A stretch of DNA of 64,000 nt from Methanothrix sp. (GTDB taxonomy: Archaea; Halobacteriota; Methanosarcinia; Methanotrichales; Methanotrichaceae): positions 1,568,001 through 1,632,000 of the forward strand of contig OY821645.1 of NCBI GenBank assembly GCA_963682135.1. The letters run 5' to 3'. The notes under the pieces were generated by a model that made no database searches, was not told the origin of the DNA, and worked only from the letters and a program-made list of their open reading frames with translations. Below, one piece after another: positions 5,177 through 17,337 of this stretch. Every line of letters starts with the position of its first letter. Within the stretch, counting starts at the first letter, position 1. The position numbers and the translations under genes were made by a program.

Positions 5177-6148
5177 ATGAGTGATGAGGAGGAATGTATA
5201 ATCAGAGCGTTTCTTATAATTGTAATCCTGATGTTAGCGGGATCTGCACAGTCAGCTACTTTGTCAGTTTGTCAAGAAGGATGCAACTATACGAGCATTC
5301 AAGCAGCAATTTATGCAGCAAAAATCAATGATACAATTGAGCTGCATAGTGGCACATATAATGATAGTGCAATTTTAACTAAGGAACTAAAATTTATCGG
5401 CAAAGATACAGGTAGTGGGGAACCTGTCGTTGTAGGAGATTTATATACAAATGGTCTTAGGTATTCTCTGAGAGGGTTTGGTTTTAACTCAATTAAATCT
5501 GATATGTCCTCATATTCAGAGACCAATAACTCATTGTACTACTGGATGGGAAAGGCAAGAGATTATTATTCAGCTGAATCTTATGCCAAGGCTCTAGATG
5601 CTATTTCCAAAGCACTAAAAATAGATCCTCAAAATGCAGTGGCTTGGAATCGAAAGGGCATATACTTGGCTGCTCAACACAGAGACGAAGAGGCTACAGA
5701 ATGCTATGATAATGCCCTTAAGATAGACTCATCATACAGCCCAGCGTTGTATAACAAAGGAGGTCAATTATATAACCAAGAAGAATACGAAAACGCTATC
5801 TTTTATTATGATCAAGCGATCAATGCAGACCCGAGAGATATAGAATACCTATCCTCAAAGGCCTCTGCATTAATGAAGATGGCCAAATTTGATGATGCTC
5901 TTAAGACGATTGAAAAAGCTATTGAGATACAACCACAAAGTACTGATTATTTGAACCGAAAGATCGCTATTCTATTTTCCTGGGGCAAATATGAAGATGC
6001 TCTTACTGCGATCGATAAATCCTTAGATTTGAATCCATCACAAATTGAGATCTGGCAAATGAAAGGTACTATTCTTCAGAAAATTGGCCGCAACAAAGAA
6101 GCCGATATGGCTTTCGCCAAGGCCAAGGAGCTGAGTTATACAGGATAA
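5177..6148 (+). CDS. Secreted TPR protein with a short pectin-lyase/CASH-like N-cap
   Basis: Signal peptide, VCxxGCNYTSIQAAI motif, about 6 TPRs, C-terminus AFAKAKELSYTG. Start uncertain. Confidence 0.8.
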   Translation: MSDEEECIIRAFLIIVILMLAGSAQSATLSVCQEGCNYTSIQAAIYAAKINDTIELHSGTYNDSAILTKELKFIGKDTGSGEPVVVGDLYTNGLRYSLRGFGFNSIKSDMSSYSETNNSLYYWMGKARDYYSAESYAKALDAISKALKIDPQNAVAWNRKGIYLAAQHRDEEATECYDNALKIDSSYSPALYNKGGQLYNQEEYENAIFYYDQAINADPRDIEYLSSKASALMKMAKFDDALKTIEKAIEIQPQSTDYLNRKIAILFSWGKYEDALTAIDKSLDLNPSQIEIWQMKGTILQKIGRNKEADMAFAKAKELSYTG

Positions 6149-6240
6149 CTCCAGATCGAGTTAAATGCGTAACCTGTACTCTATCAACCTTTTTTGTATT
6201 TCTAACATTATATGACATTAATATGACATAATATTGATTT

Positions 6241-6337
6241 CTTCATGGAGAGATTGCCGAGCAGGCGGAGGAGACCTTGGCGGCCATGGAAAAACGGCCC
6301 AGTCAGCCTGCTCCTGGCTGGCAGCGTGCCCAGGGGC
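6241..6337 (+). pseudogene. moeA: Decayed moeA internal 5' fragment
   Basis: Aligns by eye at roughly 80% to 13713-13809 and to the intact gene (ETLAAMEKRP/VSLLLAGSVPRG vs DTLAAREDRPVCLRLAGSVPMG), with indels. Confidence 0.85.
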
Positions 6338-6358
6338 CTTCTAAAATTATGTCCTGAT

Positions 6359-14706: not shown

Positions 14707-14785
14707 TTGGATATCTATGTCTGACCGCCAGCATTGTGTAGTCGGAAATTGTTCACCTCGTCTGCGAGGGGCTGGCTTACATGTT

Positions 14786-15421
14786 TCAGATTTTTGTATT
14801 ATCAATCTTTGCAATAAAATTACCAATTGATTCAAGATCCTTTTTGGATAGATTACTTACCGGCCTTAAATTTACAACATAATTAAATAATTTATCTGCC
14901 TTTAAAATTTTGACACTCGGTTCGTTAAGTTCAAGATGTAATCCTGGCTTTGTAAAGACAACCAATCCTTCTACCCATACACTGAAAGTATCATGGAACA
15001 CCTCTGATTTTATTAGCTTGCTTAAATTAACGGCATTCTTCTTAACTTGCTTGCTAGGGCTATCTGTCTCATAATCCTTGTGGAAAAAAAGGCCCTTTTG
15101 CTTCCTTTGAACCCATTCATCGCCGTGACATATTATCGTTCCAGCCCAATGCTTGGTTTCTATGGCGAAGATGCCTTTTGGAGTGAGCAGAACGTGGTCT
15201 ATATTGCCCCATGAAGATGGCAGAATAACGTCATTAACCAAATAATTGGAATCGTTAAGGCTTTTGAGCGTATTGATGACGATGTCTTCGCCAAGTCTAC
15301 CTTTGTTGTGATCCCTAGCTCTCTTTGAGAAAAAACGTATAATTCTTCCGACCCAGCCGTCGCCCCCAGATTTTTTATCTAGGTAATCACCTCGCTTTTT
15401 GAGTATTATCATGACAATCAA
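14786..15421 (-). CDS. NERD (nuclease-related domain) protein
   Basis: GRLGED, NIDHVLLTPKGIFAIETK and SPSKQV motifs. Confidence 0.88.
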   Translation of the reverse strand: MIVMIILKKRGDYLDKKSGGDGWVGRIIRFFSKRARDHNKGRLGEDIVINTLKSLNDSNYLVNDVILPSSWGNIDHVLLTPKGIFAIETKHWAGTIICHGDEWVQRKQKGLFFHKDYETDSPSKQVKKNAVNLSKLIKSEVFHDTFSVWVEGLVVFTKPGLHLELNEPSVKILKADKLFNYVVNLRPVSNLSKKDLESIGNFIAKIDNTKI

Positions 15422-15546
15422 TTCGGTCTTAGTTCCCGTTAATCTATATAGAATCTATACTAATATCCTGCAAACTTCGCGCCTTTCCGTGACCCGACCC
15501 CGTTGATGAATCTGCGAAGAGCCTTTTATATCTACTCGCGCCCAAA

Positions 15547-17337
15547 ATGCCTCTCATGCGTAAGGAGTTTCGTAGCCTCATCTCGCTGGAAGAAGCCCAA
15601 TCGATAGTTCTTAGCCGCCTTCCCCTGACTAGCGTGGAGACAGTCCCGCTGCCGCAGGCCCAGGGCCGCATCCTGGCCGAGAAGATCGTCTCCTCTTTGG
15701 ACGTGCCGGGATTCGCCCGCGCCTCCATGGACGGCTTTGCCGTGCAGTCTGATGACACTTTGGCAGCCAGGGAGGACCGGCCTGTCTGCCTGCGCCTGGC
15801 CGGCAGCGTGCCCATGGGCGTGCTCCCGCGCGTGCGCGTGGCCCAGGGCGAAGCGGCGGAGGTGTCCACCGGCTCCATGATGCCGCCGGGCGCGCAGGCA
15901 GTGGTCATGATTGAATACAGCCAGGCCGAAGGGGATCAGGTTCTGATCAGAAGGCCCGTCTACGGCGGCGAGAATGTGCAGGCGGCAGGAAGCGACATCT
16001 CTTTTGGCGAAGCTGTGCTCTTTCCCGGCACAAAGCTTGCAGCGCGCGAGATGGGGGTTTTGGCTGCCCTTGGCCGAACGAAAATGCCAGTGCGCTGCCT
16101 CAAGGTTGGCCTGGCCTCTACCGGCAATGAGCTGGTGGCGCCCGGCGGGACTCTGGCTGCGGGCCAAATATACGACATCAACACCTACACCATCGCTGCG
16201 GCTGTAACCGACTGCGGTGCGCAGGCCGTCCCCTACGGCATCCTGCCGGACGAAAAGAGATCAATGGCAGCATTGCTGCAAAAGATGGCCGAAGAGTGCA
16301 ACATGATTCTGGTGAGCGGCAGCACCTCAGCAGGCGTCGGAGACATGATCTTTCAGGTCTTAGAGGAAGTAGGCGAGCTGATATTTCACGGCGTGAACCT
16401 CAAGCCAGGCAAGCCCACCATCTTCGGCCAGATCAATGGCAAGCCCTGCCTGGGTCTGCCCGGCTATCCCACCAGTGCTCTGACCGTCTTCTCCTGCCTG
16501 GCAGCTCCTGCCATTCGTGCCGCTTTGGGCCAGAAGCATTCCCGAAAGAGAGTGACGGGACGGCTGGCCGGACCGCTGCGATTCGATGGTCGCCGCCAGG
16601 TGCTGGCCGTGGGCCTCTCGAACAGGTTGGTCTATCCCGTGGACAAGGGAAGCGGCTCTATCACCACTCTGGCCGGAGCGGATGGCATTATCGACATCCC
16701 TGTGGGAGTTGAGTATCTGGAGAAGGGTGAGAATGTAGAGGTGGAGCTATTTGGTGAGATGATGCCAGCCGACCTTGTGGTGGCGGGTGAAAACGCTCTC
16801 CTCCTGGAGCAGTTGGCAGAAAGGGCGTCCGGGCGTATCTTGCTATTGAATAGCGGCTCGGTGCGAGCCAGGCTCTACCTGGAGGACGGCGTGGCTGACC
16901 TGGCCTGCATCTCTGGTCCGCAAGCGATGCCGCCGGAAACGGTCGCGAAAGGCATGTCGTTGATCGGGAGTTTTAAAAGAGAGCTGGGCCTGGTCTTCCG
17001 GGATGCGAGCGCTTTGTCGAACCTTGCCGACCAACGCATCGTGGGCTGGCAGCGGGACTCTGCCATGCATGGCGCATTTGAGAGACATCTGTTGGCTTTA
17101 GGACTGACTCATCCCAGCTACGTGCGAGCGGCCAGGACCCATTCGGCTGTGGCTGCGGCGGTCGCCTCCGGACGGGCGGATGTGGGATTTGCGGAAAAGC
17201 GAGCTGCTGCGGATGCGTCTTTAGGTTTCCGGCTACTGGAACAAGACGAGATTAGGCTGCTGACCAGGCAGGAGAATGTCGATGACGACCGGCTCAAGTC
17301 CCTGGTTCTGGCGATTTCTCAGGCAGGAGGGGCTTGA
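15547..17337 (+). CDS. moeA: Molybdopterin molybdotransferase MoeA with C-terminal PBP-type domain
   Basis: SMDGFAV, STGNEL, SGSTSAG, KPGKPT and GLPGYP motifs; C-terminal THSAVAAAVASGRADVG. Confidence 0.93.
   Translation: MPLMRKEFRSLISLEEAQSIVLSRLPLTSVETVPLPQAQGRILAEKIVSSLDVPGFARASMDGFAVQSDDTLAAREDRPVCLRLAGSVPMGVLPRVRVAQGEAAEVSTGSMMPPGAQAVVMIEYSQAEGDQVLIRRPVYGGENVQAAGSDISFGEAVLFPGTKLAAREMGVLAALGRTKMPVRCLKVGLASTGNELVAPGGTLAAGQIYDINTYTIAAAVTDCGAQAVPYGILPDEKRSMAALLQKMAEECNMILVSGSTSAGVGDMIFQVLEEVGELIFHGVNLKPGKPTIFGQINGKPCLGLPGYPTSALTVFSCLAAPAIRAALGQKHSRKRVTGRLAGPLRFDGRRQVLAVGLSNRLVYPVDKGSGSITTLAGADGIIDIPVGVEYLEKGENVEVELFGEMMPADLVVAGENALLLEQLAERASGRILLLNSGSVRARLYLEDGVADLACISGPQAMPPETVAKGMSLIGSFKRELGLVFRDASALSNLADQRIVGWQRDSAMHGAFERHLLALGLTHPSYVRAARTHSAVAAAVASGRADVGFAEKRAAADASLGFRLLEQDEIRLLTRQENVDDDRLKSLVLAISQAGGA

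Follow-up and report, generated by a model that had tools for sequence, protein, structure and literature searches.

How does the interval between two housekeeping genes come to hold repeated fragments of both of them, fencing off different sets of genes, with no integrase among them? The question is raised by the start of a 64,000-nucleotide stretch of a Methanothrix genome (the window; G000:C1:1568001-1632000, G000 being the genome under study, which is assembled as one 3.04-Mb contig), where direct repeats of the 5' end of moeA, the molybdopterin molybdotransferase gene, alternate with 3' ends of aroC, the chorismate synthase gene. Window positions are used throughout, negative coordinates lying upstream of the window start; other G numbers denote 58 relatives from the same genus, and L numbers denote loci. 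The original prediction for this stretch was of an integron-like array that grows beside moeA, for example by integration of circles. We propose, at roughly even odds, that the aroC and moeA pieces are instead the scars of insertions in which DNA from related lineages was held at one end by a homology anchor and at the other by a microhomology joint, without any integrase.

The two intact genes frame an interval of ~19.7 kb. As had been suspected, an intact aroC lies upstream of the window, as an open reading frame (ORF) at -5236..-4148, 4.1 kb 5' of the window start, scoring 480 bits against TIGR00033 (cut-off 212). Intact moeA stands at the other end on the plus strand (15460-17337 with its upstream region, the gene itself being 15547-17337; Pfam and NCBIfam); it scores 572 bits against NF011068 (cut-off 534), carries the domains MoeA_N, MoCF_biosynth, MoeA_C and PBP_like, and is followed on the minus strand by priL, the primase large-subunit gene. 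Read from the aroC side, and with a prime for displaced pieces, the interval holds a transglutaminase-like gene, a TPR gene, an insertion sequence (IS), a large TPR gene, a nested IS, another TPR gene and moeA' copy 1. There follow the gene of a membrane protein that we call TPRmem270, an aroC', a pemK piece, a repeat element X, genes for a Cache protein, AzlD, AzlC and two secreted proteins, and moeA' copy 2. At the moeA end come a further aroC', a 50-aa ORF with pemK, another X, a NERD gene and moeA itself.

Self-comparison and BLAST reproduce the three direct copies of the moeA 5' sequence at the positions and identities first given for them, and the two displaced aroC 3' ends at 7333-7389 and 13854-13977, so that with intact aroC the aroC 3' sequence also occurs three times. 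Pfam assignments likewise agree with the cargo sets described for three successive units, namely TPR genes in unit 1, Cache, azlCD and secreted proteins in unit 2, and NERD in unit 3. The claim that a pemK module and X follow each aroC' holds in full for unit 3 and only in part for unit 2, where a 46-nt piece of pemK is all that precedes X. The units are also less clean than envisaged: TPRmem270 (6359-7171) lies between moeA' copy 1 and the aroC' of unit 2, and in G003 and G031 it lies beside azlD. A whole-genome self-BLAST for comparable scars returned 199 local direct-repeat pairs, mainly paralogues and internal repeats.

The joint next to unit 3 can be read base by base, and it shows a key feature that the original prediction lacks. 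The moeA' copy 2 (13441-13853, plus strand) comprises an upstream region and the first ~102 codons. It is moeA up to ...GTGGCCCAGGGCGAGGCGGCGGAGGTC and then continues as aroC sequence (GCGATAAAAGG...), and the switch falls within a 21-nt microhomology, GCCCAGGGCGAGGCGGCGGAG, that is shared by aroC and moeA and encodes AQGEAAE in both (junction J, 13831-13853, plus strand). What follows is the aroC' of unit 3 (13854-13977, plus strand), the last ~41 codons of an aroC, in which alignment shows indels of +1 and -1 and an altered stop; from the microhomology onward, 13831-13960 is 87.8% identical to the true aroC 3' end (-4288..-4159). When up to two mismatches are allowed, the 21-mer GCCCAGGGCGAGGCGGCGGAG occurs at only three sites in the 3.04 Mb, which are aroC, moeA and J, and its presence at the joint is therefore not a matter of chance. 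Across the genus, aroC and moeA both encode A-(R/Q)-G-E-A-A-E in near-identical GC-rich codons. The aroC core GGCGAGGCGGCGGAG is kept in the relatives, and their moeA has the 21-mer with 1-5 mismatches. The aroC of G000 opens the 21-mer with GCCCAA, where relatives have GCTCGC or GCTCGG, and only in G000 does aroC match the moeA motif at 20 of the 21 positions. None of the 58 relatives has a match running across J. The moeA'/aroC' fusion is an open frame of 149 aa (13528-13977) that retains the native moeA upstream region, and this chimeric ORF might yield a truncated MoeA N-terminal protein.

The aroC' of unit 2 (7333-7389, plus strand), the last 57 nt of an aroC, is 82% identical to 13921-13977. 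It has in common with the aroC' of unit 3 a derived ending, ...CTGCAAATTTAA, which occurs in 0 of 28 aroC 3' sequences from 21 relatives; this suggests that both come from one kind of aroC-pemK-X arrangement. The +1 and -1 indels suggest, in addition, that the aroC' of unit 3 was probably already a dead piece on arrival.

Which of the two moeA 5' ends that stand on either side of unit 3 is native to this lineage? They are clearly related: 13441-13853 aligns with 15460-15863 at 87.9% over 413 nt, the core of this match (13504-13803 with 15514-15813) at 92%, and the 307 coding nt of copy 2 are 92.2% identical to intact moeA. A homologue of the region 13284-13440 (plus strand), which we regard as the native moeA upstream region, stands directly before intact moeA in G024 and G034, whereas in G000 it stands before copy 2 and not before the intact gene. 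In the corresponding matches, L038r 5433-5994 is 86.4% identical to 13284-13853 and L051r 2288-2387 is 87.1% identical to 13285-13382. A tree of moeA nt 308-1791 places G000 and G024 as sisters (100%). In a maximum-likelihood tree of nt 1-307, it is copy 2 that is sister to G024 (71%), on a branch of 0.003, and the intact 5' end falls outside (98, 92%) on a branch of 0.047. When derived sites are polarised against what most of ten outgroup sequences show, copy 2 has one such site to itself within the 307 nt, the intact gene eight and G024 six; seven are common to copy 2 and G024, and two to copy 2 and the intact gene.

Synonymous divergence (dS) tells a similar story. Measured against G024, it amounts to 0.164 for priL, 0.177 for copy 2 and 0.194 for moeA from nt 826 to its end, and to 0.313 for nt 1-307 and 0.416 for nt 308-825 of the intact gene. 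Copy 2 and intact moeA differ at 21 codons, 12 of them synonymously, which matches the earlier estimate of about half. Third positions account for 15 of the 24 changed bases (nonsynonymous divergence, dN, 0.043; dS 0.205). This synonymous and third-position bias indicates that the copies diverged while both were working genes in separate lineages. Trees, derived sites, dS and codon-position bias thus agree with the original view of the copies as alleles of different lineages rather than a fresh duplicate. Copy 2 looks like the native 5' end, recently displaced and hardly changed since, and the 5' end of the working moeA (its first 307 nt) looks imported. Perhaps the imported tract extends within moeA to ~nt 825.

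Several observations weigh against this account. A tree constrained to unite copy 2 with the intact 5' end is worse by 15.7 log-likelihood units and is not rejected by the approximately unbiased (AU) test (p=0.109), and the node that unites copy 2 with G024 has only 71% support on 307 nt. The tract to nt 825 rests on one relative, G024, a draft with 6% contamination; the tree of nt 308-825 pairs G000 with G024 all the same (55%), and sliding identity shows moeA to be a mosaic over its full length, with a further dip at 1126-1350. Two indels and an altered stop mark the aroC' of unit 3, in contrast to the nearly unaltered copy 2, so that either the aroC' had died before it left the donor or a more complicated history is involved. 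A search of the 58 relatives and two metagenome scans found no donor with the simple interval aroC-antitoxin-PemK-X-NERD-moeA. Finally, the relatives are mostly draft metagenome bins, and single junctions in them, such as the one in G019 described below, could therefore be assembly chimeras.

Metagenomes do contain relatives of unit 3. In run X1, contigs are 97% identical to 13867-14280 and 94.5% identical to 14712-15454, the NERD region. A search of metagenome contigs for the NERD protein gave 234 pattern hits and 0 confirmed ones, and a 23-nt exact pattern over the aroC'/antitoxin border had 0 hits in the metagenome scan. Within the genus, NERD was found only in G052, as a 75% match at another locus. 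Separately, a 454-nt contig of X1 leads from 33 moeA-like letters (to 15942) through six other letters into aroC' from 13867, and in this sense 'goes back 2076'. We set this 15942->13867 joint aside as too weak to serve as evidence, given its 33-nt side, depth of 5.65 and 90% likeness. Part of its moeA-like match (GATCAGG.TT) also fits the aroC variant of G034, G024 and G054, and the contig may represent either a further moeA'/aroC' joint, formed at some other short identity, or a mis-placed aroC variant.

If the interval is prone to insertion, is it also variable elsewhere in the genus? A query with the junction region found matches in 56 of the 58 relatives. The aroC 3' end and the moeA 5' end share a contig and an orientation in 31 of the 58, separated by anything from 0 (G058, G042) to 4.9 kb; in the remaining 27 they are on separate contigs or only one gene was found, and none has them far apart on one contig. 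The order aroC-moeA-priL is kept in the loci that were fetched. The predicted synteny across a variable interval is thus borne out, the cargo differing widely, and these comparisons support the idea that aroC and moeA are ancestral neighbours in the genus and that the spacer between them is a variable recombination hotspot. The cargo of the relatives includes RelB/PemK, PIN, nucleotidyltransferase and acylphosphatase genes, a helix-turn-helix gene with a membrane protein, azlCD and an amino-acid permease, as well as methyltransferase, TetR and condensation genes, ferredoxin, TPR proteins and IS3.

Displaced pieces recur in these intervals. Extra aroC' pieces are present in G047, G052, G013, G034, G020 and G051, and extra moeA' pieces in G019, G024 and G051. 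The aroC' pieces start near residues 230, 280, 285, 285, 316, 320 and 323 and span 120-420 nt; the moeA' pieces end near nt 262 (copy 1), 307 (copy 2 and G019) and 84 (G024). Start and end points as varied as these argue against one fixed recombination site. On contig G019:C252, the moeA' piece ends within the same moeA motif as copy 2 (...GCGCAGGGCGAGGCTG) and then continues as TATATTTTAT..., which corresponds to the last codons and downstream flank of that genome's own aroC (GGCGAGGCTGTAGATTTTAT), with a microhomology of 10 nt. Next to this joint comes a PIN/antitoxin module, and G020 has a 95.9% identical one after an aroC'. In G019 the moeA' piece and a full moeA are on separate contigs (L045, L072), and G026, whose contamination estimate is 6%, has two full-length moeA loci (L069, L071), also on separate contigs.

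The exchange of cargo between lineages can be seen directly in unit 2. The segment 7558-10094 (pemK piece, X, Cache, azlD and azlC) is collinear with G034 at 94.0% identity, compared with 86.5% for moeA and 86.7% for aroC. In terms of dS against G034, Cache (0.083) and azlC (0.093) contrast with aroC (0.50), moeA (0.27-0.43) and priL (0.33); azlD, at 0.275, is an exception. In G034 this block sits directly before intact moeA, without unit 3. The displaced aroC' of G034 groups with the aroC of G024 and G054 (98% bootstrap), and its working 3' end is placed elsewhere in the tree. These data support a mirror image of the moeA case, in which the insertion would have been anchored in aroC and the native 3' piece pushed towards moeA. 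The insertion in G047 was probably anchored in aroC as well. In G000 itself, the dS of aroC against G024 is 0.54 and that of priL 0.16, which suggests that both anchors are mosaic.

The older part of the G000 array is less legible. The moeA' copy 1 (6241-6337, plus strand) is a decayed moeA 5' piece, of which the aligned part (6254-6337) is 84.5% identical to 13727-13809 and 79.8% identical to 15737-15819. It stops ~16 nt short of the 3' flank of the 6359-7171 gene, and this same 3' flank sits ~20 nt past the aroC stop in G024 and G054. The joint itself (6337/6338) has no trace of aroC in G000 and is too decayed to read. The notion of growth next to moeA therefore survives in part: the newest unit does adjoin moeA and the moeA' pieces do decay with distance from it, but one-way polarity does not hold, the insertion in G034 and probably that in G047 being anchored in aroC.

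Based on these comparisons, we propose that one end of the incoming DNA, which would come from a related lineage, enters by a homologous crossover inside a flanking core gene, the anchor, and that the other end is attached where a short identity happens to exist. In the most recent event, the incoming piece would have consisted of an aroC 3' end, the antitoxin, PemK, X, NERD and the 5' part of moeA. Crossover would have taken place inside moeA, perhaps near nt 825, and the incoming aroC end would have been joined to the resident moeA at the shared 21-nt identity. No resident DNA would be lost in the process: the resident moeA 5' end would be stranded upstream as copy 2, and moeA would be left with a foreign 5' end. 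The DNA would have passed between cells, probably in linear rather than circular form. The rest of the array would have arisen by similar, older events, with either moeA or aroC as the anchor and in a tentative order, together with block transfers of arrays that were already mosaic. The aroC-anchored insertions and the untidy order around 6359-7389 both suggest that the array grew from either side and through block transfer.

Other explanations account for part of these observations. The intervals of two strains might have been joined head to tail during assembly: the moeA 5' copies differ as alleles do, and 400-nt repeats can mislead assemblers. We consider this exceedingly improbable. The assembly is a single contig, J is a specific moeA/aroC hybrid and not a repeat collapse, and a contig of 1799 nt with 0 differences spans 13781-15579 (J and all of unit 3) in the isolate-type runs X19 and X21, which belong to two studies, at a depth that is flat across the contig (61-71 in X19, 196-286 in X21). 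X19 and X21 are possibly from the same strain as the genome, and so they test the assembly and do not give independent biological support. Tandem displaced pieces of a target gene are a hallmark of integrase-made islands, and site-specific islands at the aroC 3' and moeA 5' ends, made by a tyrosine or serine recombinase whose gene lies elsewhere or has disappeared, would fit the toxin-antitoxin (TA) and nuclease-type cargo, which is typical of islands. Yet no tyrosine or serine recombinase was found among the scanned ORFs of the G000 interval, where IS transposases alone turned up, or among 56 ORFs across the intervals of 15 relatives, which yielded only an IS3-type rve transposase, in G046. 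The nearest PF00589 match in G000 (G000:C1:1634763-1635212) lies ~50 kb downstream and contains two stops, in keeping with the original observation that no integrase is in view. The variable aroC' starts and 120-420-nt span leave no fixed short core, and the joints lie where the two flanking genes happen to be identical over a short stretch. Islands of this type are thus very improbable here.

Two further alternatives share more with our proposal, and we regard both as unlikely. In one, the interval of a related strain would be excised as a circle at the 21-nt identity and would enter the moeA 5' region by a Campbell-type single crossover. This would yield the exact moeA'/aroC' joint at the microhomology and would explain the foreign alleles and the G019 junction; the low-depth joint in X1 that goes back could even be such a circle, or a second tandem junction. 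A circle that ends at moeA nt 307, however, cannot deliver sequence past that point, and dS over nt 308-825 (0.416) is twice that of the rest (0.194). A single crossover should also leave both copies chimeric, and copy 2 looks native throughout. No circle was observed, the X1 joint being as weak as described above. The circular intermediate of the original prediction is therefore slightly disfavoured, given that the divergent moeA tract seems to reach ~nt 825, beyond the duplicated 307 nt. In the other alternative, the interval would have been duplicated in tandem in situ via the 21-nt direct repeats, its cargo diverging and the moeA-proximal copy later being overwritten from another lineage. 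Short direct repeats around an interval are a classic substrate for such an event, and the reciprocal deletion would presumably destroy both genes, so that only duplications would survive. Units 2 and 3 do share pemK, X and an aroC' with the same derived ending, and the grouping of copy 2 with the intact 5' end is compatible with the AU result (p=0.109). But a second event is then required to explain why divergence lies on the functional copy (eight unique sites against one; branch of 0.047 against 0.003), and the third-position bias of the differences needs explaining too. X differs by 27%, moeA by 8-12% and the pemK piece by 4%, which gives no single age, and the cargo of unit 2 has a dS of only 0.08-0.09 against G034. 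A more far-reaching extension of our own proposal would be that the aroC/moeA microhomology is a maintained recombination site, a host-encoded, homology-driven counterpart of the integron by which the genus would accumulate accessory cassettes between these two essential genes, no integrase being needed. We consider this a long shot; if it were true, the joints at the same moeA motif in G000, G019 and possibly X1 would be its footprints.

What does the interval carry? Unit 3 contains a candidate TA module (14004-14499, plus strand), in which a 50-aa candidate antitoxin (14004-14156) overlaps by 20 nt a toxin gene of the PemK/MazF type (14137-14499). The toxin domain matches PF02452 with 37.6 bits (cut-off 23.1) over residues 10-112. 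The 50-aa ORF has no family match in Pfam, NCBIfam or PADLOC; a counterpart in G051 is 74% identical in amino acids, and its PemK 83%. In most relatives the PemK module sits at other loci. TA modules are a frequent cargo of the interval, and that this pair stabilises the array, as was first suggested, is a guess. Unit 3 ends with the gene of a NERD-domain protein of 211 aa (14786-15421, minus strand; PF08378, 82 bits), which in PADLOC and NCBIfam has domain-level matches only (PglW/MkoA/MAD6 N-termini), far under the cut-offs.

Between these genes lies element X (14496-14700, plus strand), a GC-rich repeat of ~200 nt that is dispersed in relatives, where it reaches at most six copies per genome; G000 has only two (14496-14700 and 7638-7843). 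In five loci of 15 in relatives (L079-L098), X stands just upstream of an aconitase-X gene, in the orientation opposite to that of X here, and several further copies adjoin IS transposase genes. The idea that X is a structured RNA is not supported: the consensus fold of 26 copies has four invariant pairs and no covariation. A search of 5000-16000 against Rfam gave no match with E <0.1 and a single chance-level hit with an E of 0.13.

In unit 2, the pemK remnant (7555-7600, plus strand) is a 46-nt internal piece, 96% identical to 14210-14255, that is fused straight to X (7603-7852, plus strand; 73% identical to 14461-14706). The same internal pemK deletion is present in G034 (L064). The remnant is followed on the minus strand by the gene of a secreted double-Cache protein (7913-8836; sCache_2/dCache_2 in Pfam) and by azlD (8988-9350) and azlC (9304-10137), which together occupy 8988-10137 and match AzlD and AzlC in Pfam. 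In G003, G054, G025 and G026, azlCD is directly upstream of moeA and points away from it. Two secreted proteins are encoded at 10207-13127 on the plus strand, one of 211 aa without a family and one of 762 aa with PKD, CarboxypepD_reg, S-layer and TPR matches in Pfam. The TPRmem270 gene (minus strand) encodes a membrane protein with one C-terminal TPR by Pfam and has DNA matches of 78-79% in L066, L039 and L070; it is found directly after aroC in G024.

Farther from moeA, the plus strand encodes a secreted-type TPR protein of 341 aa (5123-6148; Pfam TPR_1 and related) and a large TPR protein with a transglutaminase-like N-terminal region (12-2291; Pfam TPR families, and Transglut_core in its upstream paralogue). 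In self-BLAST, this N-terminal region is duplicated at 86% identity between -3752..-3166 and -66..523, the latter covering the first ~520 nt of the 12-2291 gene, and a 67% relative of it lies between azlC and moeA in G034. The nested IS (2440-4962) consists of an rve-type transposase gene on the minus strand (2440-2832 and 4510-4962; rve_3) that is split by an IS with a DDE_Tnp_1 transposase on the plus strand (2926-4527). It is bounded by a 31-nt inverted repeat (2373-2403/5120-5150, 84%), which is the only pair of inverted repeats of at least 30 nt in 1-20000, a search in which no dedicated attC model was applied. Another copy of the DDE_Tnp_1 transposase gene, with an equal Pfam score, is found at L100 6171-7463. 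The same locus holds a second stacked array, outside the window and beside an ammonium transporter gene (G000:C1:1436300-1439600; L100 2300-5600), in which a GC-rich repeat of ~480 nt, present at least three times (copies 78-88% alike), alternates with PIN/AF2212-like and HicA/HicB pairs, followed by an IS. The PIN module of this second array is 84% identical to the PIN module in the aroC-moeA interval of G019.

How does the locus compare with known systems? Homology-facilitated illegitimate recombination (HFIR) has reportedly been demonstrated by experiment in transformable bacteria, during natural transformation, in work attributed to de Vries and Wackernagel in 2002, Prudhomme and colleagues in 2002, and Meier and Wackernagel in 2003. 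Its likeness to what we propose lies in one homologous anchor and a nearby joint at a short microhomology, by which foreign DNA is added without a recombinase; the difference is that there it was an experiment in bacteria and here it is an inference from sequence in an archaeon. Among the matches listed in our literature search, no title concerned an archaeal case of HFIR. The features that such events leave are present at this locus. A foreign working end accompanies a native displaced piece (for moeA with the AU p=0.109 given above, for the aroC of G034 with 98%), the joint shows microhomology near the anchor (21 nt at J, 10 nt in G019), and cargo is closer to another lineage than its flanks are (Cache and azlC against G034, with azlD as the exception).

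The displacement of Rhs C-terminal regions is said to have been described by Jackson and colleagues in 2009. Displacement arrays and the present locus have in common that modules from other strains are anchored by homology in a conserved gene, that the old end is displaced and orphaned (downstream, in those arrays), and that growth is stepwise, without an integrase and with later block moves of whole arrays by homologous recombination. Kirchberger et al. (2017; PMC5361080) treat displacement arrays of Rhs, contact-dependent inhibition (CDI) and type VI secretion system (T6SS) effector-immunity genes, propose HFIR as their origin, draw a comparison with integrons and remark on the missing integrase. 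The present locus differs in that its anchors are two housekeeping genes and not a toxin gene; in that insertions come from both sides; in that the host is an archaeon; and in that one joint has an unusually long identity, of 21 nt, between the flanking genes. Selection keeps the immunity-gene orphans of displacement arrays, while the orphans here are known from their sequence alone. The exchanged unit of gene 3' part, spacer and 5' part of the next gene also resembles the '3' region - intergenic - 5' region' evolutionary unit set out for the tandem lpl paralogues of Staphylococcus aureus (Tsuru & Kobayashi 2008, PMC2568036). The lpl flanks are paralogues, for which ordinary unequal crossover suffices, whereas aroC and moeA are not related and have just the 21 nt in common.

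Tandem islands of the Islander type, which integrases make at tRNA genes or at the 3' ends of other genes, similarly have target-gene pieces that fence small blocks of cargo of the TA or defence type. A displaced target piece is present at the aroC-moeA locus as well, but there is no recombinase inside and no fixed core at the borders; piece lengths vary and joints are made at chance identities. The likeness to an integron is that of a cassette array growing beside a fixed point, with the newest unit next to moeA. It goes no further, as there is neither an adjacent IntI-type gene nor an attI, no attC-type inverted repeats were seen at the cassette ends in the search for pairs of at least 30 nt, the units hold several genes with orientations of their own, and insertion also takes place on the aroC side. 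The principle has already been described for bacterial toxin loci, and the locus is a clear archaeal example of it and not a new molecular machine.

Gene exchange in slow-growing, acetate-using methanogens has been little studied, and among the matches listed in a limited literature search none dealt with genomic islands in this genus. The aroC-moeA interval offers a readable record of such exchange: a native end left stranded almost unaltered next to the import that replaced it, a joint resolved to single bases, and the same hotspot in varied states across dozens of species. It also makes the locus a concrete target in digester metagenomes, where circles, donors and differences between strains could be sought. 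If our proposal is right, accessory genes such as TA pairs, a NERD nuclease-domain protein, transporters and surface proteins would move between lineages of these methanogens by ordinary recombination anchored in core genes.

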